DNA of 64,000 bases from Acidimicrobiales bacterium (GCA_963422745.1 OY730477.1:759734-823733), one strand, 5' to 3'. Numbered from the stretch's first letter, positions 1-56,650 are shown. Notes: generated by a model not told the origin, from the letters alone. Translations and numbers: made by a program.

Positions 1-2219
1 CCGACTGGTGCGGATGTTGTGTTGGTTGGTCCTGCGGTGACTTCTTATGCTAGTGATTATTCGGTTTCGTTTGAGGTAGCGGAGCAGAACTTGCGTCGTA
101 TTTCGGAGTTGCAGGAGCTGATGGTTTCGATCATTGGCCTGGAACGTTCGCGAGTCGCTGGTACTGGTATTGATCATGGTATGGACATGCGTGGGTGGGT
201 TTGGTTGGTTGGCGATGATCCAGCATCCGCGAGCGCGGCGCGGATCGCGGACGCGTATGATGATATGGAGATACGTTTCGGCGCAGATCACACGTATGCA
301 GAGCTGCGCGAAGCTCAGGACAGCTTAGATTTTGATAGTGTCGCTGGCCCGGAGACCAAAGCAAGGCTATCTGATATGGTGGTGTACACGGCTGTGGATG
401 TGGATGCCAACAGCGTTGAGATCGGAATTGACCCAGCCCGGGCATATACCCGTGTGCCTAGGTCCACCTCAGCGTCTCCGGTATCGGATGAAGAACTCGC
501 TACTGAAGCTGATTGGGTTGTGTCAGTGCTTAAGGGTTATGTTGATGTGCCGATAGTTATCGGCGATGGACGAGGTTACGGTTCAACGGCTAGTTTTCTG
601 GGTGGTGAAGAGATGGGACTGTGTACTTCGGGGTTTGCTGCTAAACAAAATGGTGGGCCTTACGGGATCATCACCGCTGGTCACTGCGAAGAGTTCATTG
701 TTATGAATGGAATTCGTTTACCGTATGTGGTTTGGTTGGGCGAGCAGAACCGCTGATGGCGCAGTTCCATGTCATCCCGCTGCCAGCAAACCCCGGAGAT
801 GAGTACCACAACCTGTCTAATACCTACAGAACTAGGCGTCATCAGTGCCATAATGTATATACAATATGTGAAGTCAGAAGCGACATATCCCGATTTGGCA
901 TGCAAGACTATGATCAGAATATCCAGGTCATAAGACGTGATTATGTTTGCCATACCGGAGAAAGTAGTGGTGTATCCTGCGGAACAATCACAAACATAGA
1001 TCTAGCACCAGAGTACGAAGATGACCTGGATGATCAGGGTGGCAATAGGCATGCTTGCCGAGAAGAAAACGACGCCGCTGTTGATTGTGATCCTGTCTTC
1101 GTCAGAGTATATGGTCCTTCGCTTAGACAATGTGGAGGAGATAGTGGCGGTCCTTGGTATGGCGGGCGGGGTGTTGCTTATGGAATCCATAAGGGCGGAA
1201 GTAATAGAGGCGATTGCACGACAGAAGGTAAGTACGCCTTCTTTTCTGCTGTAAGAGAAGTAGAAAATTTTCTTGGGGTTCAGGTATTGACCGCAGATCC
1301 GTCGCCGCCCGGCGCCTTGGGTGATGTCAGCGCTACTATAGACCCCAATGATGTGCGGGTTGGCTGGTCGGCTCCGAGTTCTGGTGCTGCTGGCTATATC
1401 ATATCTCGCAAGATCCATCTTTGGGATCAGCCATACCGTGAAATCGCCAGAACATCCATGAAAATCGTCTACAACCCTGATACCTATTTCTATGATCCTT
1501 TCTCGGGTTTGGTACCGGGGATGCGATACACCTATCGAGTCAAGGCTATCGACAACCTTGGTAATACCGGATCCTGGTCATACTCCAATACTATAACCGC
1601 CCCCACAAAAGAAACGATTCCACAAGAACCGGTTCCTGGCCCTCCAACAAATGTCCGCGTTACGAAAGGTCCTCGTTATGTGAGGGTTGGGTGGTCCGCT
1701 CCGTCTACCGGCGCGACCAAATATCAAATTTATCGGCGAATCGCGCGGCACGGGTATGAATACGCCAGGATTGCGACGACGTCTGATACCTATTTCTATG
1801 AACTACTGGCAGGTCTAAACCCTGGCACGGAATACTACTACCGGGTCAAAGCTGTCAACAGTCTCGGCGATGCCGGGCCCTGGTCAAACTATGGTGCTAT
1901 CATCACTCCCAAACAAGAAACGATTTCGCCAACAGCGATTCCTGGCCGTCCAACAAATGTCCGTGTTACTATGGGCCCCCGCTACATAAGGGTTGGGTGG
2001 TCCCCTCCGTCTACCGGCGCGACGAAATATCATATTTATAGGCTAATCGGGCGGGATGGCAATAAATTAACCAGGATCGCGACGACGTCTGAGATCTATT
2101 TCTATGAGCTAGTGGCAGGTCTAAACCCTGGCACCACATACTACTACCGGGTCAAAGCCGTCAACAGCCTCGGCGATACCGGGCCCTTGTCGACCGCCGG
2201 TGCTATCACCACCCCATAG
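1..2219 (+). pseudogene. Secreted S1 serine protease (alpha-lytic protease/streptogrisin-like) with 3 C-terminal FN3 domains, cassette copy 1; 5' end lies outside the window; reading frame broken
   Basis: ORFs 19..756 and 732..2219 are colinear with the intact paralog 4336..6660. Relative to that copy there are two 1-nt insertions (about 731 and 757) and a TGA at 754-756. TAGHC and GDSGGPWY motifs are present. The catalytic-Asp context TADAQFHV reads PLMAQFHV in the downstream frame. Confidence 0.8.
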
Positions 2220-2228
2220 CAATAACCT

Positions 2229-2396
2229 CAGTTGATCCACACACCTAACACTGAACCAAACCCAAACGGTGTGCGTGGTGTGGGTGAGACTGGCATTGTC
2301 GCGCCTATGGCAACGATCGGTAACGCGATCAATCGGGCTACGGGTGTGAGGTTGACGTCGTTGGCGATGTCAGCCGAAGGTGCTGGCAGCGCTTGA
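2229..2396 (+). pseudogene. 3' remnant (about 55 codons) of a xanthine dehydrogenase/aldehyde oxidase-family molybdopterin-binding subunit gene (cassette 1 copy)
   Basis: It translates to QLIHTPNTEPNPNGVRGVGETGIVAPMATIGNAINRATGVRLTSL... This fits the C-terminal block I remember for this family (G.GE....P..A..NA...ATG.R...LP..P..V). Stops at 2217-2228 leave no upstream coding continuation. A 2-nt deletion relative to 6670..6852 scrambles the last codons. Confidence 0.6.
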
Positions 2397-2410
2397 GGAG
2401 AGCGGTTGAT

Positions 2411-2656
2411 GTGGTGACCGTTCATTTGATGACGGATCATCGTCGCTTTACCGGCGGTGAGGGTGTTATTGAGGTGGACGGCCGAACCGTCGGCGAGGTG
2501 ATCGACAATCTTGAGGTTCGCTATCCGGGGTTGGGTGAGTTGTTGCGCAACGGGTCGTCTGCTGGGATGCACGGCGAGATCCACAGCGAACCCGACTATG
2601 TTGCTGTGCAACCTGGCACGGTGATCTACTTCGTTGCTCCCCTTGCTGGGGGTTGA
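2411..2656 (+). CDS. MoaD/ThiS-family ubiquitin-like small protein ending in Gly-Gly (cassette 1)
   Basis: About 81 aa: VVTVHLMTDHRRFTGGEG..VEVDGRTVGEVIDNLEVRYPGLGELL...VIYFVAPLAGG-stop. The length, the RYPGL motif and the C-terminal GG are typical of MoaD-like sulfur carriers. GAGGAG lies upstream of the GTG at 2411. The start is uncertain (TTG at 2393 is also in frame). Confidence 0.6.
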   Translation: MVTVHLMTDHRRFTGGEGVIEVDGRTVGEVIDNLEVRYPGLGELLRNGSSAGMHGEIHSEPDYVAVQPGTVIYFVAPLAGG

Positions 2657-2966
2657 ACTGTAGGTTCAAGAGGCGGCTGCCGGTTGGGGTAAGCAGTGCT
2701 TGAAGTGATCTCAGATCGGTGTCCGTCGGGGCCGATTGCTCGGTGGCCGGTTGGTTGGTGGCCGCCTTTGGTTCCTCCGAGACGTGGGTCGGCGTGGGCA
2801 TCTGTCTTTTTTGCTGAATGCCACATGGTTGGTTGCTGTGACCTTGCCGATCCCGGCGTGGTCGGCTGCGCAGGCCAGATTGATCATTGATGGTCTGGTC
2901 ATGGTTCGGCTTCCCCCTCTGAAGGGGCCTGGGAGCACACCAGTCGGGGTGGGAATGCTAGGTATT

Positions 2967-2996
2967 TTGTTTTCGTACGGTGGTGTGTGTTATGAT
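2967..2996 (+). promoter_or_regulatory. Candidate promoter TTGTTT-18 nt-TATGAT ending 7 nt before the lipoprotein ATG (leaderless-type arrangement)
   Basis: The hexamers were read directly. The same arrangement is conserved in cassette 2 (7194..7224, TTGTTT-19 nt-TATGGT, also 7 nt before the ATG). Confidence 0.3.
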
Positions 2997-3002
2997 GTGG
3001 TG

Positions 3003-4349
3003 ATGTTGGTGAAGCGTTTGTTACAGGGTGGTTGTGGGTTTTTGGTTCGTGGGGGTGTGTTGGTGCGGTGTGTGTTGTTGGGTTTGGTTGTGGTGGTGTT
3101 GGTTGGTTGTAGGGGTGGGTCATCTGCGGAGCCCGAGGTAACGGTAGAGCCTGTGGTGACGGGAGAGCCTGGGGAGACTGGGTTGCTTGGTGATGTGGCT
3201 GTTGGTGTGGGGGAGTTGTGTGGTGAGCCTGTGGTGTTGGATGAGCCTGAGGATCGTGATGAGATTATTGGGGTGCCGTGGCCTCAGCGGGGGTGGGTGT
3301 GGGATGTTGATGATCCGCTTTGGGATTGGGATGTTGATGAGTATGTAAGGGATTTTTCGGTGTCGCGTGAGGTGGCGCAGCGGAGAAAGGATCGTTTGGG
3401 TGTGGTTTTGTCTGCGATGAAATCGATTGTGAGTTTTGAGTATTCTAGGGTGGCGAATTGGGGAGTTCGCAATTCTGAAGATAACATGTCGGGGTATGTG
3501 TTGTTGGCTGGTTCGGGTCCTGTGTGTTTGGAGGCTTTCGAGTTGGCGGAGAGTTTTGTGGATTTGGAGATTCGTGTCGGGGCACCGGATTCAAGAGTTG
3601 AGTTGGTGGCTGCGGAGGCCCGGATGCGTGAGTTGTTCGGGGTGGGTGGTTCTTTGAGGAAGATTTCGGAGGGTGGAGAGGAATATCGTATTACCGGGCT
3701 TGCTTTTCGTGCTGTTGAGTCTAGTGGTGATGTTGGGTTCCCTGTGTTGCAGGTTCGGGTGTATCCTACTTCTTTGATTGATCGGGTGCCTGATCGTTTG
3801 GCTCCAGCGGATTTGGCGTTGGTGAGCGCGCAGGAGCGCCAGGCGATGTTTGATTGGGTGGCTGAGGGCCTGGCTGAGTATCTTGATGTGGGTTTCGTGA
3901 TGGTAGATCGCATCACGGAGGGCCCTCCCGGGGATTTGGTTGTGGCCCCGGATTATGGTCCGGGTGTGCCGGGATACGACCCGGATATGCCGCTGGAGAG
4001 ACTATTCAGGTATTCTCCTGATATGGTATTCTATTCTGCTTTGGTTGAAGGGGTTCTTAGCATTGAGGAGCCGTGTGTGTATATTGACGATTATATATTG
4101 AAGCTTCCGGAGTTTCTTACGCGTTATGATCCCGCAACGGGCCAGCTTTGGGTCCAAGGCGATGGTCCTTTCGTCACCGGTGATAAAGTCTTCGTTGGTG
4201 GAGGACAAGGTGGTAATAGTAAACCAGGATCAGTATGCGAACCGCGAAAAGAAATCAGATCGAGCGAGGATGGTTCATGGACCGGAGATAGAAATACATG
4301 GTCCGGAACCAGTATGACACTAGAGGAGGGCCGGTATGAAGGACCGTAA
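3003..4349 (+). CDS. Putative lipoprotein whose N-terminal region is homologous to the pro-region of the adjacent S1 protease; no protease domain (cassette 1)
   Basis: The signal MLVKRLLQGG..VLLGLVVVVLVGC has a lipobox-like LVGC. The segment DFSVSREVAQRR..SRVANWG..GYVLLAGSGP..LEIRVGAP..EL aligns with the protease pro-region DYSVSFEVAEQN..SRVAGTG..GWVWLVGDDP..IEIRFGAA..EL. The ORF-track start at 2736 is probably too far upstream. Confidence 0.7.
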   Translation: MLVKRLLQGGCGFLVRGGVLVRCVLLGLVVVVLVGCRGGSSAEPEVTVEPVVTGEPGETGLLGDVAVGVGELCGEPVVLDEPEDRDEIIGVPWPQRGWVWDVDDPLWDWDVDEYVRDFSVSREVAQRRKDRLGVVLSAMKSIVSFEYSRVANWGVRNSEDNMSGYVLLAGSGPVCLEAFELAESFVDLEIRVGAPDSRVELVAAEARMRELFGVGGSLRKISEGGEEYRITGLAFRAVESSGDVGFPVLQVRVYPTSLIDRVPDRLAPADLALVSAQERQAMFDWVAEGLAEYLDVGFVMVDRITEGPPGDLVVAPDYGPGVPGYDPDMPLERLFRYSPDMVFYSALVEGVLSIEEPCVYIDDYILKLPEFLTRYDPATGQLWVQGDGPFVTGDKVFVGGGQGGNSKPGSVCEPRKEIRSSEDGSWTGDRNTWSGTSMTLEEGRYEGP

Positions 4350-6660
4350 GATGGTTGGTTTGCAGGCAGGTACGATGACCTGGGTGAGGTATTATCATCT
4401 GGTTCTGTTGGTCTTAGTGTTTGGTGTGTTGTTGTTGGCTGGACCGGTTGCGGCTCAAGCGGATCCCGATGATGTTACGACTGGTGCGGATGTTGTGTTG
4501 GTTGGTCCTGCGGTGACGTCTTATGCTAGTGATTATTCGGTTTCGTTTGAGGTAGCGGAGCAGAACTTGCGTCGTATTGTCGAGTTGCAGGAGATTATGG
4601 TTTCGATCATTGGCCTGGAGCGTTCGCGAGTGGCTGGTACTGGTATTGATCATGGTGTGGACATGCGTGGGTGGGTTTGGTTGGTTGGCGATGATCCAGC
4701 ATCCGCGAGCGCGGCGCGGATCGCGGACGCGTATGGTGATATTGAGATACGTTTCGGCGCAGCTCACACGTATGCAGAGCTGCGCAAAGCTCAGGACAGC
4801 TTGGACTTTGATAGTGTCGCTGGCCCGGAAACCAAAGCAAGGCTATCTGATGTGGTGGTGTATACGGCTGTGGATGTGGATGCCAACAGCGTTGAGATCG
4901 GAATTGACCCAGCGCGGGCACATACCCGTGCGCGTAGATCTATTTCACCGGTTCCGGTATCGGATGAGGAACTCGCTACCGAAGCTGATTGGGTTGTGTC
5001 GATGTTTAAGGGTTATGTTGATGTGCCGATAGTTATCGGCGATGGACGAGGTTACGGCCCCACAGCTAGTTTTCTGGGTGGTGAAGAGATGGGACTGTGC
5101 ACTTCGGGGTTTGCTGCTAAACAGAATGGTGGGCCTTACGGGATCATCACCGCTGGTCACTGCGAAGAGAAGATTGTGATGAACGGAATTGAATTACCGA
5201 ATGTGGTTGGTTGGGAAAGCAGAACCGCTGACGCTCAGTTCCATGTCATCCCGCTACCAGCAAACCCCGGAGATGACTACCACAACCTGTCTAACACCTT
5301 TAGAACCAGGCGCCATCAGTGCCATAATGTATACACAATATGTGAAGTCAGAAGCGACATCAGCCGATTTAGCATGCAAGACTATGATCAGAACATCCAG
5401 GTGACAAGAGGTGATTATGTTTGTCATACAGGACATAGGAGTGGCGTATCCTGCGGAACAATCACAAATATACATCTAGTACCACGATTCCCTGAGGAGG
5501 ATGACCCTGCTTGCCGAGAAGAAGATAATGGTGCCGGGGTTGTCTGTGCCGCTGTCTTCGTCAGAGTTACTGGTCCTTCACTTAGAGAATGTCGAGGTGA
5601 TAGTGGCGGTCCCTGGTATAGCGGTCTGGGTGTTGCTTATGGAATCCATATGGGCGGAAATGGAAGAAGAGATTGCACGAACCCAGGCAAGCGGGCAATA
5701 TTTTCTGCTGTAAGAGAAGTAGAAAGTTTTCTTGGGGTTCAGGTATTGACTGCACCTCCGTCGCCGCCCGGCGCCCCGGGTGAGGTCAGCGCTACTATAG
5801 ACCCCAATGATGTGAGGGTTGGCTGGTCGGCTCCGAGTTCTGGTGCTGCTGGCTATATCATATCCCGCAAGATCCATCTTTGGGATCAGCCATACCGTGA
5901 AATCGCCAGAACATCCATGGAAATTGAATATAGTCCTGATACCTATTTCTATGATCGCCTCTCGGGTTTGGTACCGGGGATGCGATACACCTATCGAGTC
6001 AAGGCTATTGACAACCTTGGCAATACCGGATCCTGGTCATACTCCGATACGATAACCGCCCCCACACTAACCGCGATTCCTGGCCCTCCAACAAATGTCC
6101 GCGTTACGAAAGGTCCCCGTTATGTGAGGGTTGGGTGGTCCCCTCCGTCTACCGGCGCGACCAAATATCAAATTCATAGGCGAATCGCCCGGGATGGCTA
6201 TCAATACACCAGAATCGCGACGACGTCTGAAATCTATTTCTATGAGCTAGTGGCAGGTCTAAACCCCGGCACCGAATACTACTATCGGGTCGAAGCTGTT
6301 AACAGTGTCGGTGATACCGGGCCCTGGTCGAACTATGGTGCTATCACCATCCCTACACAAGAAACGACAATAACAGCGGTTCCTGCCAGCCCAGGAAATG
6401 TCAGTGTTACTCAAGGTCCTCGTTATGTGAGGGTTGGGTGGTCCGCTCCGTCTACCGGCGCGATGAGATATCATATTTATCGGCGAATCGCGCGGGACGG
6501 CTATAGATACGCTAGGATCGCGGCAACATCTGATACCTATTTCTATGAGCTAGTGGCAGGTCTAAGCCCCGGCACCGAATACTACTATCGTGTCAAAGCC
6601 GTCAACAGCCTCGGTACTACCGGACCCTTCTCAAACTATGGCGCCATCACCACCCCATAG
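4336..6660 (+). CDS. Secreted S1 serine protease (alpha-lytic protease/streptogrisin-like): signal peptide + pro-region + catalytic domain + 3 FN3 domains; the only intact copy
   Basis: 774 aa. GAGGAGGG lies before the ATG at 4336. The signal ends ..LLLAGPVAAQA. Catalytic motifs are ITAGHCE (His), TADAQFHV (Asp context), CHTG..SGVSCGTI and GDSGGPWY (Ser). Three approximately 95-aa repeats have the FN3 signature (P.NV.V....Y.RVGWS.P..GA..Y.IYR..........T....Y.....L.PGT.YYYRV.A.N..G..GP.S). Confidence 0.85.
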   Translation: MKDRKMVGLQAGTMTWVRYYHLVLLVLVFGVLLLAGPVAAQADPDDVTTGADVVLVGPAVTSYASDYSVSFEVAEQNLRRIVELQEIMVSIIGLERSRVAGTGIDHGVDMRGWVWLVGDDPASASAARIADAYGDIEIRFGAAHTYAELRKAQDSLDFDSVAGPETKARLSDVVVYTAVDVDANSVEIGIDPARAHTRARRSISPVPVSDEELATEADWVVSMFKGYVDVPIVIGDGRGYGPTASFLGGEEMGLCTSGFAAKQNGGPYGIITAGHCEEKIVMNGIELPNVVGWESRTADAQFHVIPLPANPGDDYHNLSNTFRTRRHQCHNVYTICEVRSDISRFSMQDYDQNIQVTRGDYVCHTGHRSGVSCGTITNIHLVPRFPEEDDPACREEDNGAGVVCAAVFVRVTGPSLRECRGDSGGPWYSGLGVAYGIHMGGNGRRDCTNPGKRAIFSAVREVESFLGVQVLTAPPSPPGAPGEVSATIDPNDVRVGWSAPSSGAAGYIISRKIHLWDQPYREIARTSMEIEYSPDTYFYDRLSGLVPGMRYTYRVKAIDNLGNTGSWSYSDTITAPTLTAIPGPPTNVRVTKGPRYVRVGWSPPSTGATKYQIHRRIARDGYQYTRIATTSEIYFYELVAGLNPGTEYYYRVEAVNSVGDTGPWSNYGAITIPTQETTITAVPASPGNVSVTQGPRYVRVGWSAPSTGAMRYHIYRRIARDGYRYARIAATSDTYFYELVAGLSPGTEYYYRVKAVNSLGTTGPFSNYGAITTP

Positions 6661-6669
6661 TAATCACGT

Positions 6670-6852
6670 CAGTTGATCCATACACCTAGCACTGAACCAA
6701 ACACAAACGGTGTGCGTGGTGTGGGTGAGACTGGCATTGTCCCGCCTATGGCAACGATCGGTAATGCCATCAATCGGGCTACAGGTGTGAGGTTGACGTC
6801 GCTGCCGATGTCACCGCCGAAGGTGCTGGCAGCGCTTGAGGAGAGCGGTTGA
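6670..6852 (+). pseudogene. 3' remnant (60 codons + stop) of a xanthine dehydrogenase/aldehyde oxidase-family gene (cassette 2 copy, C-terminus intact)
   Basis: It translates to QLIHTPSTEPNTNGVRGVGETGIVPPMATIGNAINRATGVRLTSLPMSPPKVLAALEESG-stop. It follows directly after the protease stop at 6660, leaving no room for the rest of the gene. Confidence 0.65.
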
Positions 6853-6853
6853 T

Positions 6854-7099
6854 GTGGCGACCGTTCACTTGATGACGGATCATCGTCGCTTTACCGGCGG
6901 TGAGGGTGTTATTGAGGTGGACGGCCGAACCGTCGGCGAGGTGATCGACAATCTTGAGGTGCGCTATCCCGGGCTGGGCGAGTTGTTGCGCAACGGGTCG
7001 TCCGCTGGGATTGATGGTGAGATCCACAGCGAACCCGACCATGTTGCTGTGCAACCCGACACAACGATCTACTTCGTAGCTCCCCTTGCTGGGGGCTGA
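6854..7099 (+). CDS. MoaD/ThiS-family ubiquitin-like small protein ending in Gly-Gly (cassette 2)
   Basis: Paralog of 2411..2656 (VATVHLMTDHRRFTGGEG...IYFVAPLAGG-stop). The GTG at 6854 is preceded by GAGGAGAG. It starts 2 nt after the stop of the upstream gene remnant. Confidence 0.6.
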   Translation: MATVHLMTDHRRFTGGEGVIEVDGRTVGEVIDNLEVRYPGLGELLRNGSSAGIDGEIHSEPDHVAVQPDTTIYFVAPLAGG

Positions 7100-7193
7100 A
7101 AAGCAGGCCCAAGAGGCGGCTCTCGGTCGGGGCAAGCGGTGGGCCCTCTGCAGGGCCTGGGAGCGAACCAGTCGGGGTGGTGATGCCAGGCAC

Positions 7194-7224
7194 TTGTTTT
7201 TCATACGGCGGTGTGTGTTATGGT
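7194..7224 (+). promoter_or_regulatory. Candidate promoter TTGTTT-19 nt-TATGGT ending 7 nt before the lipoprotein ATG (cassette 2)
   Basis: This is the positional equivalent of 2967..2996. Its conservation between diverged cassettes is the main support. Confidence 0.3.
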
Positions 7225-7230
7225 GTGGTG

Positions 7231-8532
7231 ATGTCTGAGAAGTGTTTGTTGTTGGGTGGTTGTGGGTTTTTGGTTCGTTGGGGTGTGTTGGTGCGGTGTG
7301 TTGTGTTGGGGTTGGTTGTGGGGGTGTTGGTTGGTTGTGGTGGCGGGTCTCCTGAGGTCCCTGCAGAGCCTGAGGTGCCGGTCGAGTCTGTGGTGACGGC
7401 TGGGTTGCTTGGTGATGTGGCTGTTGGTTCGGGGGAGTTGTGTGGTGAGCCTGTTGTGTTGGATGATGCCACGGAGAGATGGCCGTCGCATCGGTGGGAT
7501 TGGGATGATGCTGCCCGGCATTGGGATGTTGATCTGTATGCGAGGCATTTTTCGGTGTCGCGTGAGGTGGCACAGCAGAGAGTGGATCGTTTGGGTGTGG
7601 TTTTGTCTGCGATGAAATCAATTGTGAGTCTTGAGTATTCTAGGGTAGCGAGTTGGAGATTTCATCGTACTGAGGATGGGATTGTGGGTTATGTGTTGTT
7701 GGCTGGTTCGGATCCTGTGTGTTTGGAGGCTTATGAGTTGGCGGCTAGTCTTGTGGATTTGGAGATTCGTGTCGGGGCACCGGATTCAAGAGTTGAGTTG
7801 TTGGCTGCGGAAGCCCGGATGTTTGAGTTGTTCCGAAAACGTGGTTATTTCAGAATAACTTCCATGGGTGGAGAGGAATACCGTATTCCTGGCCCTTCTA
7901 TTCTTGCTGATGGGTCTAGCGATGTTCGGTTCCCTGTGTTAGAGGTTCGGGTGTTTCCTAGTTCTTTGATTGGTCGGGTGCCTGATCGTTTGGCTCCAGC
8001 GGATTTGGCGTTGGTGACTGCTCAGGAGCGTCAGGCTATGTTTGATTGGGTGGCTGAAGGCTTGGCTGAGTATCTTGATGTGGGTTTCGTGATGGTAGAT
8101 CCCATCACGGAGGGCCCTCCTGGGGATTTGGTTGTGGCCCCGGATTATGGTCCGGGTGTGCCGAAATACGACCCGGATATGCCGTTGCAAAGACTATTCA
8201 GAAATCGGCCTGAGCTTCCATTCATGTTAGCTGGATATGAAGGGGTTCTTAGCATTGAGGAACCGTGTGTGTATATAGACGACTATATATTGAAGCTTCC
8301 GGAGTTTTTCACGCGTTATGATCCCCACACAGGCCAGCTTTGGGTACACGGCAATGGTCCTTTCGTCACCGGTGACAAAGTCTTCGTTGGTGGAGGACAA
8401 AGTGGTAATACTAAACCAGGATCAGTATGTGAACCGCGAAAAGAAATTAGATCGAGCGAGGATGGTTCATGGACCGGAGATAGAAATACATGGGCCGGAG
8501 ACAGTATGAAATTTCAGGAGGAAACGGAATGA
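7231..8532 (+). CDS. Putative prodomain-like lipoprotein, cassette 2 paralog
   Basis: MSEKCLLLGG...VVLGLVVGVLVGC has the lipobox. It is colinear with 3003..4349 and shares the conserved C-terminal block EEPCVYIDDYILKLPEF.TRYDP.TGQLWV.G.GPFVTGDKVFVGGGQ. Its stop overlaps the next protease ATG (ATGA at 8529-8532). Confidence 0.7.
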   Translation: MSEKCLLLGGCGFLVRWGVLVRCVVLGLVVGVLVGCGGGSPEVPAEPEVPVESVVTAGLLGDVAVGSGELCGEPVVLDDATERWPSHRWDWDDAARHWDVDLYARHFSVSREVAQQRVDRLGVVLSAMKSIVSLEYSRVASWRFHRTEDGIVGYVLLAGSDPVCLEAYELAASLVDLEIRVGAPDSRVELLAAEARMFELFRKRGYFRITSMGGEEYRIPGPSILADGSSDVRFPVLEVRVFPSSLIGRVPDRLAPADLALVTAQERQAMFDWVAEGLAEYLDVGFVMVDPITEGPPGDLVVAPDYGPGVPKYDPDMPLQRLFRNRPELPFMLAGYEGVLSIEEPCVYIDDYILKLPEFFTRYDPHTGQLWVHGNGPFVTGDKVFVGGGQSGNTKPGSVCEPRKEIRSSEDGSWTGDRNTWAGDSMKFQEETE

Positions 8533-10843
8533 ACGATCCTAAACAGGTTAGTATACAGGCAGGAATATTGCCCTGGCTGACGTTTTATCATCTGGTGTTG
8601 GTGTTGGCGCTTGTGTTTGGGCTGATGTTGTTGGCTGGGCCGGTTACGGCTCAAACGGATCCCGATGATGTTCCGACTGACGCGGATGCTGTGTTTCTTC
8701 ATCCTGCGGTGACGTCTTATGCTAGTGATTATTCGGTTTCGTTTGAAGTAGCAGAGCAGAACTTGCGTCGTATTGCGGAGTTGCAGAGGATTATGGTTTC
8801 GATTATTGATCTGGAACGTTCGAGAGTGGCTGGTACTGGTATTGATCATGGTATGGATATGCGCGGGTGGGTTTGGTTGGTTGGCGATGAACCAGCATCC
8901 ACGAGCGCGGCACGGATCGCGGACGCGTATGGTGATGTGGAGATACGTTTGGGTGCGGCTCACACGTATGCAGAGCTGCGCAAAGCTCAGGACAGCTTGG
9001 ACTTTGATAGTGTGACTGACCCGGGGACCAACGCAAGGCTATCTGATATGGTGGTGTACACGGCTGTGGATGTGGATGCCAACAGCGTTGAGATCGGAAT
9101 TGACCCAACGCGGGCACATACCCGTGCGCGTAGGTCCACCTCGGCGGCTCCGGTATCGGATGAAGAACTCGCTACCGAAGCTGATTGGGTTACATCGATG
9201 CTAAAGGGTTATGTTGATGTGCCGATAGTGATCGGCGATGGACGAGGGTACGGTTCCACGGCTAGTTTTCTGGGCGGTGAAGAGATGGGACTGTGTACTT
9301 CGGGGTTTGCTGCCAACAAGACGGTGGGCCTTACGGGATCATCACCGCTGGTCACTGCGAAGAGATCATTGTTATGAACGGAATTAGGTTACCGAATGTG
9401 GTTGGTTGGAAAAGCAGAACCGCTGACGCGCAGTTCCATGTCATCCCACTACCGGCAAACCCCGGAGATGACTACCACAACCTGTCTAATACCTTCAGAA
9501 CCAGTCGCTTCATGTGCTATTATCTAAGCACAATATGTGCAGTCAGAAGCGATATCGCCCGTGATGACATGGAAAAGTCTACCGATGCCCAAAGAGGGGA
9601 TTATGTTTGCCATACCGGAAAAAATAGTGGCGTATCCTGCGGAACAATCACAAACAAAGATCTAGCACCAGGTTACCCTAATGATGATGTTTGCGAAGAA
9701 GAAGATCGCACCGGTATTGTCTGTGCCCCTGTCTTCGTTAGAGTCGATGGCCCTTCGCTGAAAGCATGTGGAGGGGACAGTGGCGGTCCCTGGTACAGCG
9801 GTCTAGGTGTTGCCTATGGAATTACTATGGCCGGAAAGCAAAGGGAGGATTGCACTACCCCAGGCCAGTTCGCCGTGTTTTCTGCTGTAAGAGAGGTAGA
9901 AGACTTTCTTGGAGTTCAGGTATTGACCGCACCTCCGTCGCCGCCCGGCGCCCCGGGTGATGTCAGCGCTACCATAAAACCTAATGATGTGAGGGTTGGC
10001 TGGACTGCTCCGAGTTCAGGTGCTGCAGGCTATATCATACACCGCAAGATCCATCTTTGGGATCAGCCATACCGTGAAATCGCCAGAACAGCCATGGAAA
10101 CCAACTATAGACCTGATACCTATTTCTATGATACTGTCTCTGGCTTGGTGCCGGGCGTACGACTCACATATCGAGTCAAGGCTATTGACAACCTCGGTAA
10201 CACCGGATCCTGGTCATACTCCAATACCATAACTATCCCCACACAAACAACGGTTCCGGGCCCTCCAACAAATGTGCGCGTTACGAAGGGTCCCCGTTAT
10301 GTGAGGGTTGGATGGTCCGCTCCGTCTACCGGCGCGGCGAGCTATTATATTTATAGGCGAATCGCGCGGGACGGCCATAGATACACCAAGATAGCGACAA
10401 CATCTAAAGTCTATTTCTATGAGCTATTGGCAGGTCTAAACCCCGGAACTGAATACTACTATCGGGTCGAAGCGGTCAACAGTGTCGGCCAAACCGGGCC
10501 CTGGTCGAACTATGGTGCTATCATCACCCCCACACAAGAAACGATTCTACAAACAGCGATTCCTGGCCGTCCAACAAATGTCCGCGTTACTATAGGCCCA
10601 CGTTATGTGAGGGTTGGGTGGTCCGCCCCGTCGAACGGAGCGACGAAATATGAAATTTACAGACTCATCGCGCGGGATGGCAATCAATTAACTTGGATAG
10701 CGACGACATCTGAAGTCTATTTCTATGAGTTAGTGGCAGGCCTAAACCCCGGAACCACACACTACTATCGGGTCAAAGCGGTCAACAGTGTCGGCCAAAC
10801 CGGGCCCTTGTCAACCGCCGGTGCTATAACCACCCCAAAGTAA
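8529..10843 (+). pseudogene. S1 protease-3xFN3, cassette copy 3; frame broken by a 1-nt deletion just upstream of the catalytic His codon
   Basis: ORFs 8490..9377 and 9293..10843 are colinear with 4336..6660. gctgccaacaagacggtgggcc here aligns with gctgctaaacagaatggtgggcc in the intact copy, so one nt is missing near 9316-9322. AGGAGGAAA lies before the ATG at 8529. Confidence 0.8.
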
Positions 10844-10854
10844 TAGCCCCAGTT

Positions 10855-10895
10855 GACAATCTTGAGGTGCGCTATCCCGGGCTGGGTGAGTTGTT
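10855..10895 (+). other. 41-nt internal fragment of the MoaD-like gene at the right edge of the cassette array
   Basis: gacaatcttgaggtgcgctatcccgggctgggtgagttgtt matches the interior of 6854..7099 (about 6948-6988). It is preceded by cagttga, which is the first 7 nt of the inter-cassette junction. Confidence 0.7.
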
Positions 10896-12181
10896 TATGT
10901 TCCGGCCCGCGAGCCGATCCGTGCACGAGAACCGATCCGTGTGATCAAGGGGTATAGACCCGCTCCGATTAGCGACAGGGCACCCACGGCGGCCCAGTGG
11001 CTCAGAAAACCGAAGTCTCGGGTCTCAACGATCACACCGGACAGCAATCCTGCGACAGCCCCGGCCATCACCATTGTGAAGTCCGCAGCTCCCTGCACGG
11101 TGGCTCGTTGAGTGACGTCAAATGACGCTGTCAACAGAGCCGATCCGGACAAGGTGGCGATTGACCAACCCAGCCCCACCAAGAAGAGGCCGACGAACAC
11201 GCCGGTGCTGTCTGCGGGATCGGTACGCGACGCAAACTCGCCGCCGATGAACAACGTCACACCGGCGACCGCAACCATCACACCGGCACGTACCCGGTCA
11301 ACTACCCAACCCACCGCCGGCGAGAGCATGAACATGCCAACGACGTGCAGAGAAATCACGTAACCGATTACGCGCACTTCGTGGTTGCCGTCGTCCATGT
11401 GCAGAGGGGTAACGGTCATGATCCCGACCATGACCGCTTGTCCCACAGCCATAGCAAACACTGCTACCGCAGCCGGTGGATAGCCAGCCAGCCTGACGAA
11501 TGACTCACGCAACGAAGGCCTGGTCTCCTCCGGGCCCGTGGCACCGGTCTTCAGTGCTAGCAGCAGAGGATCGGGACGCAGCAATGTGTGGACCACCACC
11601 GAGGCCAGAGCGAAGACCACCACCCCCATCAGGTACGGCCCGGCCAATTCGTTGAGCCCCAGGAGTTTGGCTACACGTCCGGTCCCGCCGAGGGCGACGG
11701 TCGGACCGAGCACGGCACCAATTGAGCTCGCCCACACGACGATGCCGATGTCGCGACCCCGGTTGTCGGGCTCGGCCAGATCTGCGGCGACGTAACGGGC
11801 CGCCAGATTGGCTGCCTGGCCGACACCGATGCAGATCACCCCTCCCAGCAGCAGCGGATAGATCCGGCTCTGGATCGCTAGAAAGGCCACCAAGCTGCCG
11901 ATGCCGCCCACTATCCAGGCTCGCAGAAGACCCGGTCGGCGGCCGTGGCGAGCCATGTAGCGGCCCAACGGAACCGCAGCGATCGCTCCGCCGATGGCGA
12001 TCATGGTTGCAGCGAGCGTGGATAAGGCGTCGTTGTCGGTGATCTCCTTAGCGGCGAGGCTCGAAGCGGCGAACCCGGCTGCCATCCCCATACCGGCAGG
12101 CAGCACCGAAGCGATCAGTACCCAGCGGGTCCGAGCGTGGACTCGGCTTATGTCGGTGCAGGTACCGGTGATTGATGACAC
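10895..12181 (-). CDS. MFS transporter
   Basis: 428 aa, about 12 hydrophobic segments, with the MFS loop motif GRYMARHGRRPG between TM2 and TM3. Confidence 0.75.
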   Translation of the reverse strand: MSSITGTCTDISRVHARTRWVLIASVLPAGMGMAAGFAASSLAAKEITDNDALSTLAATMIAIGGAIAAVPLGRYMARHGRRPGLLRAWIVGGIGSLVAFLAIQSRIYPLLLGGVICIGVGQAANLAARYVAADLAEPDNRGRDIGIVVWASSIGAVLGPTVALGGTGRVAKLLGLNELAGPYLMGVVVFALASVVVHTLLRPDPLLLALKTGATGPEETRPSLRESFVRLAGYPPAAVAVFAMAVGQAVMVGIMTVTPLHMDDGNHEVRVIGYVISLHVVGMFMLSPAVGWVVDRVRAGVMVAVAGVTLFIGGEFASRTDPADSTGVFVGLFLVGLGWSIATLSGSALLTASFDVTQRATVQGAADFTMVMAGAVAGLLSGVIVETRDFGFLSHWAAVGALSLIGAGLYPLITRIGSRARIGSRAGT

Positions 12182-12258
12182 CGCGGCATTTTGGCACGGT
12201 TACGCCGGTTCGGGCTGCTTAGACGGTTGTACAGACGGGGTGGCATAATCGTTGATTC

Positions 12259-12804
12259 GTGGAACCGATACACGTGTGGCGTTCGCCGAAGGTTGAGATC
12301 CGGCCCAGTCGGCTCGGCGGTCGAGCCGTTTTTGCTTCCGATGCGGTGGTCCGTGGCGAGCGGTTAGCGGTGAAGGTCGGTCACGTTGTTGACGGAACCG
12401 AGGTTGATCGCCTGACCGCCGAGATTGGTGACTACTCGTTACAGATCGACACTGACCTGTTCCTTTCGCCCCGCCACCTTGACGAGTACGACTCCATGGT
12501 CGTCCACATCAACCATTCGTGTGAAGCTAACGTGGGGTTCGCTGGCAACGTGACCTATGTGGCGCTACGTGACATCCAAGCCGGAGAGGAGCTGTGCCAC
12601 GACTACGCCATGGCTCGCACACGGGCCTACCGGTTGACCTGTGAGTGCGCAACTCAGCAATGCCGCGGCATTATCACCGAATCCGATTGGCAACGTAGCG
12701 ACCTTCAGCTCCGCTACGACGGCTACTTCATGCCCCATGTGCAGGCTCTCATCAATTCAATAAATGCTGGCCCACAAACAACGATCGGAGGTGACCGGGT
12801 GTGA
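12259..12804 (+). CDS. SET domain-containing protein (putative protein-lysine methyltransferase)
   Basis: Motifs HINHSCEANV, GEELCHDY and a post-SET-like C.C....C block. Confidence 0.7.
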   Translation: MEPIHVWRSPKVEIRPSRLGGRAVFASDAVVRGERLAVKVGHVVDGTEVDRLTAEIGDYSLQIDTDLFLSPRHLDEYDSMVVHINHSCEANVGFAGNVTYVALRDIQAGEELCHDYAMARTRAYRLTCECATQQCRGIITESDWQRSDLQLRYDGYFMPHVQALINSINAGPQTTIGGDRV

Positions 12805-12827
12805 GTCCTTCACGATCACACTGTTGG

Positions 12828-12990
12828 GCTCCGGCCCTGTCCGAGCAAGTACCCGGCCTGTTGACGTCTGCGCTTCGCTCGGAGGTGCGTTGCGCTCCGG
12901 CCCTGTCCGAGCAGATACCCGGCCTGTTGACGTCTGCGCTTCGCTCGGAGGTGCGTTGGGCTCCGGCCCTTTTTGAGCAGATACCCGGCC
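12828..12990. repeat. Intergenic tandem repeat, 66-bp unit x about 2.5
   Basis: gctccggccctgtccgagca recurs at 12828, 12894 and 12960. Confidence 0.9.
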
Positions 12991-13015
12991 CGAAGGTGAA
13001 TTCCATAAATCGTCG

Positions 13016-14560
13016 GTGCGGCAATTGACCGAAGGTGTATTGAGGCGAGGTCGCAGAGCACGCAGGCAGTCCGTTGCGAGTGGGCCGTCTCAGCCTCCGT
13101 GGCGTCTCTTCAGGCGCCACTTTGAGCCGACGCGGGTGGTGTCAGAAGATCAACTGGAGGCGATCCATTTAGCGTCGCTGGAGGTGTTGTCAAGGACCGG
13201 CATGGACTTCCTGCATCCAGAAGCCTTGCGGCTCTGGGCCGCCGCGGGTGCCTCAGTACACGACCAAAGGGTACGGATCGACAACGATCTCGTGCTCGAT
13301 CTCATTGCCGACGCACCCCGTGAGTTCAAGCTGCACGCACCGGACCCGCAGTTTGACGTCGTCGTTGGTGCTGACAACGTTGTGTTCACAGCGGTGGCCG
13401 GTGCACCTCACTACACCGACCGTCAGAGCGGTCGTCGCTCCGGCAACCGAGAGGATTTTCGGACGCTTCTCAAGCTCTGCAAGCAATTGAACGTCATCCA
13501 GTGCAATGGGGGCTACCCGGTCGAACCCATTGATCTACATCCGTCGATCCGGCACCTCGAGGCAACCCGTGACATTGTAACCCACACCGCCAAGGTCGTT
13601 GGTGTCTACAGCCTGGGCAAACAGCGCAACCTTGACTGCCTTGAGATGGTGCGCATAGTGCGAGGTCTGCGGCCCGATGAGATCGACACCCACCCGATCG
13701 TTCACACTGTCGTCAACACGTCGTCGCCGCTGCGACTCGACACCTCGATGGTTGAGGGAATCCTTCAGTACTCGGCTCGCAATCAGGTGGTCATCGTCAC
13801 CCCCTTCACCCTGGCCGGGGCGATGGCACCGGTTACGATCCCCGGTGCGATTGTGCAACAAAACGCAGAAGCCCTCGCCGGGATTGCCTTCACTCAGCTC
13901 GTTCGTCGTGGCGCGCCCGTCGTCTACGGAGGGTTCACATCCAACGTCGACATGCAGTCCGGTTCTCCCGCTTTCGGCACACCTGAATACATGCAGTCGA
14001 CCATGCTGGGCGGCCAGCTGGCTCGTCGTTACGGTCTGCCGTATCGATCCTCGAATGTGTGCGCCGCCAACACCATTGACACCCAGGCGGGCTACGAAAG
14101 CACCTTCGCCTTGTGGGGGGCCATCATGGGTGGTGCCAACATCGTGTTCCACGGCGCCGGATGGATGGAAGGCGGGTTGCATTCCTCGCCGGAGAAGATG
14201 GTGATAGACGCCGACCTGCTGCAGATGGTCGCCACGTTCTTGACGCCGATGACGATCGACGACGCCACACTGGCGGTGGACGCGATCGCCGAAGTCGGAC
14301 CCGGTAGCCATCATTTCGGCACCCGTCACACCCAGGACCGGTATCGCGATGCGTTCTACCATCCCATGATCTCGGACTGGCGCAACTTCGAGACCTGGGA
14401 CGAGGCCCAACGCCCAACCTCATATCAACACGCCGAACGTGTAGTGAAGGAACTCCTCGCCTGCTATGAACCACCAGCGATCGACGACGCGGTGCGGGCC
14501 GAACTCGACGAGTTCGTCGACCGGCGCATAGCCGAAGGCGGTGTGGAGACCGACTATTGA
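13016..14560 (+). CDS. MttB-superfamily (trimethylamine methyltransferase-like, non-pyrrolysine) quaternary-amine methyltransferase
   Basis: 514 aa with an N-terminal RRGRRARR. SEDQLEAIHLASLEVLSRTGMDF is typical of the family. The ORF is uninterrupted, with no in-frame TAG. Confidence 0.7.
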   Translation: MRQLTEGVLRRGRRARRQSVASGPSQPPWRLFRRHFEPTRVVSEDQLEAIHLASLEVLSRTGMDFLHPEALRLWAAAGASVHDQRVRIDNDLVLDLIADAPREFKLHAPDPQFDVVVGADNVVFTAVAGAPHYTDRQSGRRSGNREDFRTLLKLCKQLNVIQCNGGYPVEPIDLHPSIRHLEATRDIVTHTAKVVGVYSLGKQRNLDCLEMVRIVRGLRPDEIDTHPIVHTVVNTSSPLRLDTSMVEGILQYSARNQVVIVTPFTLAGAMAPVTIPGAIVQQNAEALAGIAFTQLVRRGAPVVYGGFTSNVDMQSGSPAFGTPEYMQSTMLGGQLARRYGLPYRSSNVCAANTIDTQAGYESTFALWGAIMGGANIVFHGAGWMEGGLHSSPEKMVIDADLLQMVATFLTPMTIDDATLAVDAIAEVGPGSHHFGTRHTQDRYRDAFYHPMISDWRNFETWDEAQRPTSYQHAERVVKELLACYEPPAIDDAVRAELDEFVDRRIAEGGVETDY

Positions 14561-14570
14561 TCCACGGACC

Positions 14571-15830
14571 ATGAGCACCGACCCCGTCGACTGGGGATCC
14601 GACTCCGCCTGGGTCAATACCCGGGCGCCACTGCGCGAATCCTTCGGTTTAGATCCAGCGGCTTACGCAGAAGAGCGCTTCTTTCACTACGAACAGCAAA
14701 GGCTGTTCGGACGGGCTTGGGTGATGATCGCAACGGCAGCCGCTGTCGCCGAACCGGGTCGCCTGCTCGTGCGTACGGTTGGGCGCCGGTCCATCATTGT
14801 CACGCGCTCCGACGATGGCGTACTCAGGGGCTTTATCAATTCGTGCAGGCACCGCGGAACCGAACTAGCCGACGCTGACTGTGACATCGCCGGAGTGATT
14901 CGTTGTCCGTATCACCGCTGGGGCTATCGAACAGACGGCACGCTAATCACAACCCCTGGGTTCAATCAGATCCCTCGCACGGATTTCGACAGGTCCGACT
15001 ATCCGCTGTTACCGGTGCAGGTGGATACCTGGGGGGCGCTGGTGTTCGCCTGTCTCGACCCGCAAACCCTGCCATTGAGTTCATGGTTGGGTGACCTCCC
15101 CGCTCGGATGTCTGGCTACCGCTTCGAGGACTGGCGAGTGCATTCGGAGATAGAGGTCGATGTGGCGGCCAACTGGAAGCTCATTACGGAGAACTTCCAG
15201 GAGTACTATCACCTTCGCTGGGTGCATCCCGAGTTGGCCAAGGTGAGCCGGGTGGCGGACCACTATCGGTATCAGGGCCCTGGGATGTACTGCGGTCAGA
15301 CCACCACACCGGTGTCAGGCGACGAACGCGACGAGTGGCTCAGGCTCCCTCCTGCTGCCGGGCTCGACGAATCCGACGGGTCGAGCGGGCGCTTCGTCGC
15401 CGTTTTTCCCAACCTGATGTTTGCTGTTCTGCCCAATCACGCATTCGTCATCCGCCTTGAGCCGATCACTGAGGGCTCGACCCGGGAGATCTGCACGTTT
15501 CTGCTGCCTCCGGGGACCACACCTGTTGATGCAGTCGATATGGCCCCCACCCGGGCTTTCTGGTTTGACGTGAACAACGAAGACATCGACATATGCGAAC
15601 GGGCCCAGCGAGGTATCGCCTCGGGACGAGTGCCAGCGGGACCGTTGTCCCCTCGCTTTGAGGAACCGCTGCACAGATTCCACAACATGGTCGCCGATTG
15701 CCTGACCGCCGATTCGCTAACTGCAGGATCCGGGTTCACGATTCCCGGTGGTGACGACGGCTCCGAAGGTTGCCGCCTCGGCACCGGCGTCAACCCGATG
15801 CCGGTGGCGATCGATCGGTTACATGCGTAG
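14571..15830 (+). CDS. Rieske [2Fe-2S] non-heme-iron oxygenase, alpha-subunit type
   Basis: Rieske motif CRHRG...CPYHRW. The C-terminal catalytic domain has EYYHLRWVH. The ATG at 14571 is preferred over the GTG at 14541. Confidence 0.75.
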   Translation: MSTDPVDWGSDSAWVNTRAPLRESFGLDPAAYAEERFFHYEQQRLFGRAWVMIATAAAVAEPGRLLVRTVGRRSIIVTRSDDGVLRGFINSCRHRGTELADADCDIAGVIRCPYHRWGYRTDGTLITTPGFNQIPRTDFDRSDYPLLPVQVDTWGALVFACLDPQTLPLSSWLGDLPARMSGYRFEDWRVHSEIEVDVAANWKLITENFQEYYHLRWVHPELAKVSRVADHYRYQGPGMYCGQTTTPVSGDERDEWLRLPPAAGLDESDGSSGRFVAVFPNLMFAVLPNHAFVIRLEPITEGSTREICTFLLPPGTTPVDAVDMAPTRAFWFDVNNEDIDICERAQRGIASGRVPAGPLSPRFEEPLHRFHNMVADCLTADSLTAGSGFTIPGGDDGSEGCRLGTGVNPMPVAIDRLHA

Positions 15831-15917
15831 CAGCTCTAACGGAGACGGCCTTGGTGGTCACGCCAGCAATGAGAGTGCAAGACCAGACCAAGCAAGACCA
15901 AACCAAGGGGTAAGTCC

Positions 15918-31469: not shown

Positions 31470-31539
31470 TGGTCCTCCTGACGCAGTGGTCGGGCATACG
31501 GTTAGCGCTAGCAGCCGAGTCTTGCCGCAGACGGCCAGC

Positions 31540-31850
31540 GAAGCAAAGCAACGCCTCGTGGGTTTGGTGGTTGTTGAGGAGAGGTAGGGCTTCGTGGGTT
31601 GTTGGTCGGTGAGGCATAGCAACGTCTCGTGGGTTTGTTGGTCGGTGAGGCATAGCAACGTCTCGTGGGTTTGTTGGTCGGTGAGGCATAGCAACGTCTC
31701 GTGGTTGTTGGTTGTTGAGGCATAGCAACGTCTCGTGGGTTTGTTGGTTGTTGAGGCATAGCAACGCCTGGGTTTGTTGGTCGGTGAGGTGAGGTAGGGC
31801 TTGGTGGGTTTGGTGGTCGGTGAGGCGAAACAACGTCCCACTGGTTGGTG
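31540..31850. repeat. Intergenic tandem repeat, 36-bp unit x about 8 (outer units degenerate)
   Basis: gaggcatagcaacg recurs at 31611, 31647, 31683, 31717 and 31753, with degenerate units on both sides. Confidence 0.85.
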
Positions 31851-36319: not shown

Positions 36320-36858
36320 ACCGGCTATTTGTCACCAAAGGCAGCACTCGCCGCTTCGAAGCCATCGTAGATGCACGGTGTGCTCTCCGACCGGCTCCTG
36401 CTACTCAACAGCATTCGCCGGTTCGAAGCCATCGTAGATGCACGGTGTGCTCTCCGACCGGCTCCTGCTACTCAACAGCATTCGCCGGTTCGAAGCCATC
36501 GTAGATGCACGGTGTGCTCTCCGACCGGCTCCTGCTACTCAACAGCATTCGCCGGTTCGAAGCCATCGTAGATGCACGGTGTGCTCTCCGACCGGCTCCT
36601 GCTACTCAACAGCATTCGCCGGTTCGAAGCCATCGTAGATGCACGGTGTGCTCTCCGACCGGCTCCTGCTACTCAACAGCATTCGCCGGTTCGAAGCCAT
36701 CGTAGATGCACGGTGTGCTCTCCGACCGGCTCCTGCTACTCAACAGCATTCGCCGGTTCGAAGCCATCGTAGATGCACGGTGTGCTCTCCGACCGGCTCC
36801 TGCTACTCAACAGCATTCGCCGGTTCGAAGCCATCGTAGATGCACGGTGTACTCTCCG
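36320..36858. repeat. Tandem minisatellite: one diverged 70-bp unit + seven 67-bp units (near-perfect) filling the serC-aspC divergent intergenic region
   Basis: accggct recurs at 36320, 36390, then every 67 nt to 36792. The ORF track shows identical 66-aa ORFs at 36371, 36438, 36505, 36572 and 36639. Confidence 0.95.
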
Positions 36859-36861
36859 CAG

Positions 36862-44323: not shown

Positions 44324-44537
44324 GGTTACCTCAGATCCGTGAGATCGACTGGACATATAGCTAAGACCCATACAACTAAGACGAAGTGCAGCCCTGTCTG
44401 GTTCCCGCCTGATTCTTGTATCTCGCTGGCCGTGATTTGTCGACGAGGTCCTCAATGCTCCAGCTGGCTGCGCTCCCGCAGGCTACGACGGACTCATCGG
44501 ACACGTGAGGTCTTGGTTCCCGAGGTGATGATAGGAC

Positions 44538-56298: not shown

Positions 56299-56650
56299 TA
56301 ACCCGACTGTTATAGCACCCAGCGCGATGAGCTGGCTATGACCCTGTTGGGTCGCGATGCTTGCCTCGCCCGCTTGGCCGCTGCTCGTTCCCGACTGTTG
56401 TAATAACCCGACTGTTATAGCACCCAGCGCGATGAGCTGGCTATGACCCTGTTGGGTCGCGATGCTTGCCTCGCCCGCTTGGCCGCTGCTCGTTCCCGAC
56501 TGTTGTAATAACCCGACTGTTATAGCACCCAGCGCGATGAGCTGGCTATGACCCTGTTGGGTCGCGATGCTTGCCTCGCCCGGCTGGCCGCTGCTCGTTC
56601 CCGACTGTTGTAACAACCCGACTGCTATAGCACCCAGCGCGATCAGCTGG
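56231..56650 (+). repeat. 105-bp tandem repeat x4 whose first unit contains the last 22 codons and stop of gltX
   Basis: ctatgaccctgttggg occurs at 56231, 56336, 56441 and 56546. The last unit is slightly diverged. Confidence 0.95.

Follow-up and report, generated by a model that had tools for sequence, protein, structure and literature searches.

The window analysed here, a stretch of 64,000 nucleotides from the genome of a member of Acidimicrobiales, opens with a head-to-tail array of repeat units that occupies positions 1–10895 of the plus strand. The units combine a lipoprotein gene, a protease gene, a small moaD-like (MoaD/ThiS-like) gene and, immediately in front of the latter, a short segment related to the xanthine dehydrogenase (XDH) family, referred to below as the tail. 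The parts of the array and its right-hand neighbour are the following:

1–2219, plus strand: unit 0 with protease 0; the window opens about 140 nt into this gene
2217–2219, plus strand: stop codon of protease 0, the left edge of cassette A
2268–2409, plus strand: tail A, in a frameshifted reading frame at 2232–2396; the tail B fragment with a 2-nt deletion and two replacements of P by A
2411–2656, plus strand: MoaD/ThiS-like gene A, 81 amino acids with a C-terminal GG; GGAGAG at 2397–2402
2736–4349, plus strand: lipoprotein A (P0194), called start at 2784; it belongs to the repeat unit
4336–6660, plus strand: protease A, trypsin/alpha-lytic-like with three FN3 domains
6658–6663, plus strand: TAG of protease A and an in-frame TAA, the left edge of cassette B
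6664–6708, plus strand: pre-tail B, open frame SRQLIHTPSTEPNTN with TTG at 6673
6709–6852, plus strand: tail B, 47 codons and TGA, GVRGVGET...ALEESG followed by the stop; contains the conserved GxGE
6854–7099, plus strand: MoaD/ThiS-like gene B, 81 amino acids with a C-terminal GG; GTG start
7177–8532, plus strand: lipoprotein B (P0195)
8490–10843, plus strand: protease B, split into two open reading frames
10844–10854, plus strand: post-protease flank of this third protease, common to the other two junctions up to CAGTTGA; no tail follows
10855–10895, plus strand: moaD-like remnant of 41 nt, codons 32–45, DNLEVRYPGLGEL; it abuts the stop codon of the MFS gene
10895–12181, minus strand: convergent MFS gene

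The array is also set apart by its base composition, the G+C content being 0.51–0.56 in positions 1–10000 against about 0.60 in positions 10000–64000, and by a strongly positive GC skew (0.11–0.32), unlike that of the 10000–64000 flank; the module formed by the lipoprotein and the protease may be of foreign origin or simply unusual in composition. Repeats of other kinds occur elsewhere in the window. Further tandem repeats lie at 36275–36925, 56121–56750, 21795–22410 and 31526–31838; one has a 67-nt period and about nine copies with 99% identity, one a 105-nt period and about five copies, another a period of about 36 nt, and repeats with 27-nt and 24-nt periods are found inside the reading frame 21498–23426. 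Two adjacent paralogous beta-propeller proteins (PF09826) of about 840 amino acids are encoded on the minus strand at 41927–44455 and 44538–47048, with 71–86% DNA identity over the repeat segments compared.

The tail frame of cassette B is open from 6664, has TTG at 6673 as its first start codon and ends with TGA at 6850–6852, its translation being SRQLIHTPSTEPNTNGVRGVGETGIVPPMATIGNAINRATGVRLTSLPMSPPKVLAALEESG. The earlier note, made from the DNA itself, had quoted this frame exactly as we find it, except that it placed the frame 9–10 nt past the protease stop, whereas the TTG actually lies 12 nt past the stop TAG (6658–6660) of protease A. It had also described the copy at 2229..2396 as further decayed by a 2-nt deletion, and this deletion is readily located: copy A (2232–2396) lacks 2 nt at position 2373 relative to copy B, which shifts the frame and leads to an early TGA at 2394–2396, the original TGA falling at 2407–2409. 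The tail frame and the protease preceding it are in one frame, with two stop codons between them (TAG TAA in B, TAG CAA TAA in A); in the third copy, AAG takes the place of the first stop and is followed by TAA TAG. At its other end, tail B is closely joined to the next gene, its TGA ending 1 nt before the GTG of moaD-like gene B and a Shine–Dalgarno-like GGAGAG (6840–6845) being located within the tail, 8 nt before that GTG. No Shine–Dalgarno sequence was seen before TTG 6673. A search of the tail region against Rfam matched no family, a check for promoters and terminators there returned nothing beyond chance, and its RNA folding is unconvincing (z-score of only −2.2).

The tail is clearly homologous to the C-termini of molybdenum-binding (Mo) subunits of the XDH family. 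A phmmer search against PDB matched it to residues 861–906 of the 907-residue aldehyde oxidoreductase of D. gigas (1SIJ; E 8.9e-6) and, with E below 0.01, also to PaoC, two aldehyde oxidase/dehydrogenase large subunits, nicotinate dehydrogenase and 6-hydroxypseudooxynicotine dehydrogenase, while the weaker matches (E 0.09–1.7) include 4-hydroxybenzoyl-CoA reductase, quinoline oxidoreductase and CoxL; all the PDB matches, those with E from 8.9e-6 to 1e-4 included, are at the C-terminus of the respective chain. Eight NCBIfam models of the XDH, AOR, CODH, PaoC and 4-HBCR types match the tail with E from 2.6e-9 to 3e-3, all in the last ~50 profile positions. The assignment of the peptide to the conserved C-terminus of XDH/AOR/CoxL Mo subunits in the earlier note is thereby borne out by significant matches, all of them C-terminal, and the tail qualifies as a homologous C-terminal segment of these proteins. 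Over its full 47 residues it can be aligned with the final ~47 of the xanthine oxidase family Mo subunits (1SIJ/1VLB, PaoC 5G5G, CoxL, XdhA, NdhM), including the GxGE and the ...TGVR...LP..P..V/L motif. The GVGE/GxGE of the tail is the active-site motif that bears the catalytic glutamate of the family. No Pfam family was matched by the 62-amino-acid tail frame in a Pfam scan; in a full-length gene of a relative (locus L008, see below), Pfam MoCoBD_2 reaches only to about residue 785 of 848, short of the region corresponding to the tail.

Compared with complete Mo subunits of the xanthine oxidase family, however, the tail represents only about 6% of the protein and is devoid of the hammerhead domain, MoCoBD_1 and nearly all of MoCoBD_2; PF01315, PF02738 and PF20256, which together account for about 740–860 amino acids, were not found by Pfam in the tail frame. 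The 64-kb window contains no intact XDH-family gene anywhere, nor any genes for FAD-binding (PF00941) or 2Fe-2S (PF00111/PF01799) subunits. The previously noted lack of room for the other ~700 codons is likewise evident, as a complete unrelated protease ends 12 nt upstream of tail B. The tail is therefore a gene fragment rather than a member Mo-enzyme subunit, and with ~700 codons and the partner subunits missing it has no catalytic capacity and cannot be an enzyme.

A search of 5.8 billion proteins with the tail peptide retrieved 66 homologs (P0001–P0066), all of them short (34–103 amino acids). The prefilter of this search evidently favoured short targets: a search with the full-length ortholog yielded about 8,000 homologs, the best 120 of which have 737–758 amino acids. 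A free-standing family of mini-proteins was considered and rejected, given that the four inspected short homologs are products of contig-end truncation or of split genes. P0005 is cut by a contig end, and P0010, P0049 and P0063 are pieces of Mo-subunit genes that are frameshift-split in long-read assemblies. Dozens of short database entries annotated as 'CO/xanthine dehydrogenase Mo-binding subunit' thus appear to be C-terminal fragments and not a real small-protein family.

Could the tails of the array themselves be an artefact of assembly or gene calling, with the repeats and the truncation produced by misassembly of a metagenome-derived genome? The origin of the inspected short homologs, together with the broken frames of protease copies 0 and B, would fit such an explanation, yet we regard it as exceedingly improbable. 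What precedes the tail, up to a stop only 12 nt away, is the complete unrelated protease and not frameshifted XDH sequence; the units differ by 7–25% along their length, which is not expected of collapsed or duplicated reads; and the same junction is present twice, each time with its own substitutions.

The source of the fragment could be identified in the genome from which the window comes. P0076, a 745-amino-acid Mo subunit with PF01315, PF02738 and PF20256, was recovered as the third-best match of the Mo subunit of L008 in a protein search (87% identical), and its contig, 3,328,718 bp long, is also that of the window proteins P0067–P0072. Its C-terminus reads ...HPYGVRGVGETGIVPPMATIGNAINRATGVRMTSLPMSPPKVLAALEESV, and its last 47 residues, with the end ...GVRGVGETGIVPPMATIGNAINRATGVRMTSLPMSPPKVLAALEESV, are identical to tail B at 45 of 47 positions. 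In a tblastn comparison with the window, P0076 matches positions 6709–6846 with 97.8% identity and tail A in two frames (2232–2372 and 2374–2403). It is closer to tail B than is any ortholog: the tail identity of L008, the best one, is 89% and its gene ends with ...KVLAAIDAAG, and the ending ...KVLAALEES was not found in any ortholog examined, which argues that the tails are copies of the source genome's own gene. An intact parent Mo-enzyme gene, as anticipated by the earlier note, is thus indeed present in the source genome. Tails A and B share two states unlike the parent (M replaced by L, and the final V by G), and these shared derived residues indicate that both stem from one truncated copy.

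Insights into the original setting of the parent gene come from relatives. A scan of 185,579 GTDB species genomes with a profile of the moaD-like protein yielded 46 loci, nearly all from metagenome-assembled genomes of Acidimicrobiia/Actinomycetota (one is labelled Gammaproteobacteria and one just 'bacterium'); the source genome is not among them. A homolog of the tail is located 0–55 nt upstream of the moaD-like gene in 45 of the 46, and the same succession is seen in five metagenome loci (L002–L004, L051, L052), in all of which the ThiS/MoaD-like reading frame is the next gene. The tail is 67–91% identical to its homologs in 48 relatives, the homology always beginning at the G of GVRGVGET, and wherever the contig allows, these homologs terminate a reading frame of 740–860 amino acids. 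In two loci, L004 and L008, genes for the FAD and 2Fe-2S subunits lie beside the full-length Mo-subunit ortholog, which in L008 carries PF01315, PF02738 and PF20256.

L008 (OZ243946.1) is the best tail match among the loci that are syntenic with the right flank of the window. It carries, in this order, the genes for the FAD, 2Fe-2S and Mo subunits, moaD, unrelated small genes over 3.7 kb, and then MFS (minus strand), SET, MttB, Rieske oxygenase and DAO/GCVT; those from MFS to DAO/GCVT are arranged as in the window (10895–18455) and are 69–83% identical. The arrangement from moaD to the MFS gene on the minus strand recurs in seven further loci, with gaps of 1.2–4.3 kb. Synteny with L008 and these seven loci suggests that the array fills a variable slot between moaD and the MFS gene. 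An MFS gene on the minus strand also follows moaD in L002 and L003, but this candidate synteny had to be rejected, the two MFS proteins being unrelated.

The moaD-like genes of the cassettes fall in the MoaD/ThiS family: the two copies score 27.7 (E 4e-6, copy B) and 24.1 bits with the Pfam ThiS profile (PF02597; cutoff 22.5), and both have the C-terminal Gly-Gly, ending with ...APLAGG. Their orthologs in the XDH operons of Acidimicrobiia (L005–L049; L004, L051, L052) are 52–79% identical to them and share the C-terminal GG and the place after the XDH tail. Unlike in the cassettes, the Mo gene upstream in these loci is full length and no lipoprotein or protease gene comes after. Retention of a MoaD/ThiS-like gene with GG directly behind an XDH-family operon, in 45 of 46 genomes and mostly in Acidimicrobiia, is an observation in its own right, and the possible roles of this gene include sulfur transfer for the cofactor and protein modification. 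As for the ancestral order Mo-enzyme gene, moaD-like gene, lipoprotein, protease that had been proposed for the locus, its first two elements are found in this succession in 45 of 46 loci, but the lipoprotein and the protease in no relative.

The lipoprotein has indeed a very narrow distribution. A search with its profile found exactly three members among the 5.8 billion proteins, namely P0194, P0195 and P0196, all encoded on the source contig; a scan of the genome collection with the same profile found no relatives, and the moaD–MFS gap of eight relatives contains no homologs of the lipoprotein or the protease, even at E 10. The protein matches no Pfam domain and has a lipobox-like motif, L-V-G-C. 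Its residues ~184–375 share about 30% identity with the N-terminal part of the neighbouring protease (window 37–567, 4513–5112 and 8709–9239). P0196, 78% identical to lipoprotein A and 71% to lipoprotein B, is not encoded in the window. It must therefore be assigned to unit 0, immediately to the left of the window, and the three lipoproteins match the three proteases seen. It starts with MATVHLMTDHRRFTGAEAVIEVDGRTVGEVID, that is, with moaD codons 1–32 fused in frame to the lipoprotein. Among the three proteases, 0 and A form the closest pair, and only the frame of protease A is uninterrupted; protease 0 is split into the overlapping frames 19–756 and 732–2219, with two 1-nt insertions within 25 nt near 730–760, and protease B into 8490–9377 and 9293–10843. 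These breaks reflect either real pseudogenization or errors in a long-read assembly.

From the synteny with L008, the number of exactly three lipoproteins and the fusion of P0196 with MoaD, we infer that P0076 would adjoin the array. Since moaD is located behind the Mo-subunit gene in relatives, P0076 would come first in the full layout and probably be followed by the fusion of moaD codons 1–32 with lipoprotein 0, by protease 0 and by cassettes A and B.

How far the XDH-derived sequence extends upstream can be delimited fairly closely. Secure homology begins at 6709 in copy B and at 2268 in copy A and comprises 47 codons, fewer than the last ~55–60 originally attributed to each tail. The 36 nt upstream of GVRG in copy B, LIHTPSTEPNTN, can be aligned to the parental sequence MIETIIVEVPNPSHPY by allowing for 3-nt and 9-nt deletions, with marginal significance against shuffled sequences (p 0.01–0.27 for DNA and 0.018–0.06 for protein). 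Pre-tail B is thus either strongly decayed XDH sequence or the 3' flank of the protease, and the 36 nt before GVRG, if XDH-derived at all, are far more decayed than the 141 nt after. The breakpoint itself falls somewhere from 6664 to 6709. Cassettes A and B are 87.5% identical over the 48 nt that separate the protease stop from GVRG (2220–2267 and 6661–6708, respectively), and as both tails have this one junction in common, the truncation happened once and was then copied. The possibility that each unit lost a full XDH gene on its own was likewise rejected, since A and B share one junction.

The right end of the array departs from this pattern. The claim that each cassette begins with a tail holds after the protease stops at 2219 and 6660, but not after the stop of the third protease (10841–10843). 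The sequence there follows the other junctions for 11–14 nt (to CAGTTGA) and then continues with 41 nt from the middle of moaD, with one mismatch to copy B and three to copy A. This remnant is a further unit that has lost the tail and moaD codons 1–31 on one side and everything past codon 45 on the other. It begins at moaD codon 32 (GAC AAT CTT...), exactly where the moaD of unit 0 (P0196) is cut, and this site (GGTGATCGAC followed by AAT) shares TGATC with the junction between the protease flank and the tail, CAGTTGATCC. Either the site is a recombination hotspot or there is a relation between the two junctions. A simple one-step duplication predicts neither the shared codon-32 site nor the third junction without a tail.

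These features might be read in the opposite direction, with the protease flank joined first to moaD codon 32, as in 10844–10895, and the tail representing a later conversion patch from the parental locus that restored a full-length moaD. A junction of the protease with moaD codon 32 does exist (10854/10855), unit 0 is broken at the same site in P0196, and the distribution of differences between the cassettes fits a younger patch, the island from GVRG to moaD codon 32 being about 96–98% identical (substitutions only) and the identity then dropping to 88.7%. We nevertheless consider this order of events unlikely. It needs a conversion tract with an identical end in A and B, or conversion followed by re-duplication; the L for M and G for V shared by A and B imply that the patch was not acquired recently from the parent as it now is; and the remnant differs from copy B at just one of 41 positions, which is what one would expect if it arose from a normal unit by a recent deletion.

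The divergence between cassettes A and B provides a further view of the fragment. Outside the island, the rest of the unit is about 85–89% identical (67–94% for all units outside the tail and the moaD 5' region), and the drop within moaD is steep, with two differences in the 96 nt of codons 1–32 and 17 in the remaining 150 nt. Synonymous divergence is 0.23 for moaD, 0.25 for the lipoprotein and 0.24–0.36 for the protease, with dN/dS of 0.17, 0.56 and 0.37–0.42, respectively. The tails differ by six substitutions in 141 nt (four synonymous and two not) and by the 2-nt deletion, the resulting values (pN 0.027, pS 0.135, dN/dS 0.18) being based on only these six substitutions. Copy B is intact, the frameshift and the two nonsynonymous changes all being found in copy A. 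Relative to the neighbouring genes, the tail is thus too well preserved for a neutral relic, and either gene conversion or selection is needed.

Selection would act on the fragment if it served as an upstream reading frame that couples translation into the moaD-like gene and carries its ribosome-binding site, or if it were expressed as a 59-amino-acid micro-protein. Frame B runs without interruption from TTG 6673 to its stop, which is separated from the GTG of moaD by 1 nt, and GGAGAG lies 8 nt before this GTG; 45 of 47 parental residues are retained; and the dN/dS of the tail is close to that of moaD and unlike the 0.37–0.56 of the lipoprotein and the protease. However, this ratio rests on a handful of substitutions, copy A bears the frameshift along with both nonsynonymous changes, TTG 6673 has no Shine–Dalgarno sequence, the third junction has lost the tail altogether, neither the Rfam search nor RNA folding points to a functional element, and a 47-residue piece of a buried 750-amino-acid domain would hardly fold by itself. 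Copies that are refreshed from a selected parent would also show a low dN/dS, without any selection on the fragment itself, and we thus find a selected role of the fragment very unlikely. Co-option of the entire stretch that extends from the tail through moaD codon 32 (about −145 to +96, counted from the start of moaD) as a translated leader frame or a translational-coupling element, which would account for its 96–98% identity between the cassettes, likewise seems quite improbable; if true, each cassette would need this stretch to express the MoaD-like protein with no full Mo-subunit gene upstream. The preservation of the tail is most simply read as the outcome of sequence exchange (gene conversion) between copies, or else of their being refreshed from the parent gene, which is itself under selection, and not as the sign of a function of the peptide.

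A duplication breakpoint located inside a gene leaves a fragment of this gene at every internal unit boundary and an intact parent at the edge of the array; tandem arrays gain further units by unequal recombination, and their copies exchange sequence. The 47-codon frame is very probably just such a remnant, i.e. a dead 3' fragment of the source genome's own gene for an XDH-family Mo subunit, left behind by amplification of a segment. The tail has an intact, closer parent in the same genome, and the same junction occurs in units A and B. The match to P0076, the junction common to A and B and the order of genes in relatives together support the view, put forward before, that the amplified unit runs from inside the Mo-enzyme gene to just past the protease stop.

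The ancestral locus would have consisted of genes for the FAD, 2Fe-2S and Mo subunits, the MoaD/ThiS-like gene within a few bases, a variable slot, and the convergent MFS gene with SET and MttB; in the source genome, the slot would have been occupied by a lineage-specific lipoprotein and a secreted protease. Illegitimate recombination may then have joined a point ~12–48 nt past the protease stop to a point 47–63 codons before the end of the Mo-subunit gene, and this joining would have duplicated the segment comprising the tail, the moaD-like gene, the lipoprotein and the protease. Unequal homologous recombination would subsequently have added at least one unit and later deletions eroded both ends of the array, each internal unit carrying the tail as a passenger. 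What is directly observed is the homology, the intact paralog in the source genome, the junction common to A and B and the arrangement of genes in relatives, while the position of the parent beside the array, the succession of events and gene conversion are inferred.

Partial gene duplicates as a general phenomenon have been reviewed previously (PMC3449122). With respect to partial duplicates at the boundaries of tandem segmental duplications, nothing is essentially different here: the tail is an ordinary partial duplicate, a new instance of a well-known kind. What is particular to this case, compared with partial duplicates in general, is that the fragment keeps the region in which translation of the following gene starts, and that both ends of the array are eroded at a common moaD site.

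The tail adds no new biology of molybdenum enzymes, and annotators should refrain from calling tail frames xanthine dehydrogenase genes. Its value lies elsewhere, as it fixes one breakpoint of the amplification and shows that the array grew from the XDH–moaD locus of the source Acidimicrobiia genome. The more interesting biology is found beside the tail, in the unique lipoprotein/protease pair, amplified and diverging fast, and in the MoaD-like gene conserved after the XDH operon.
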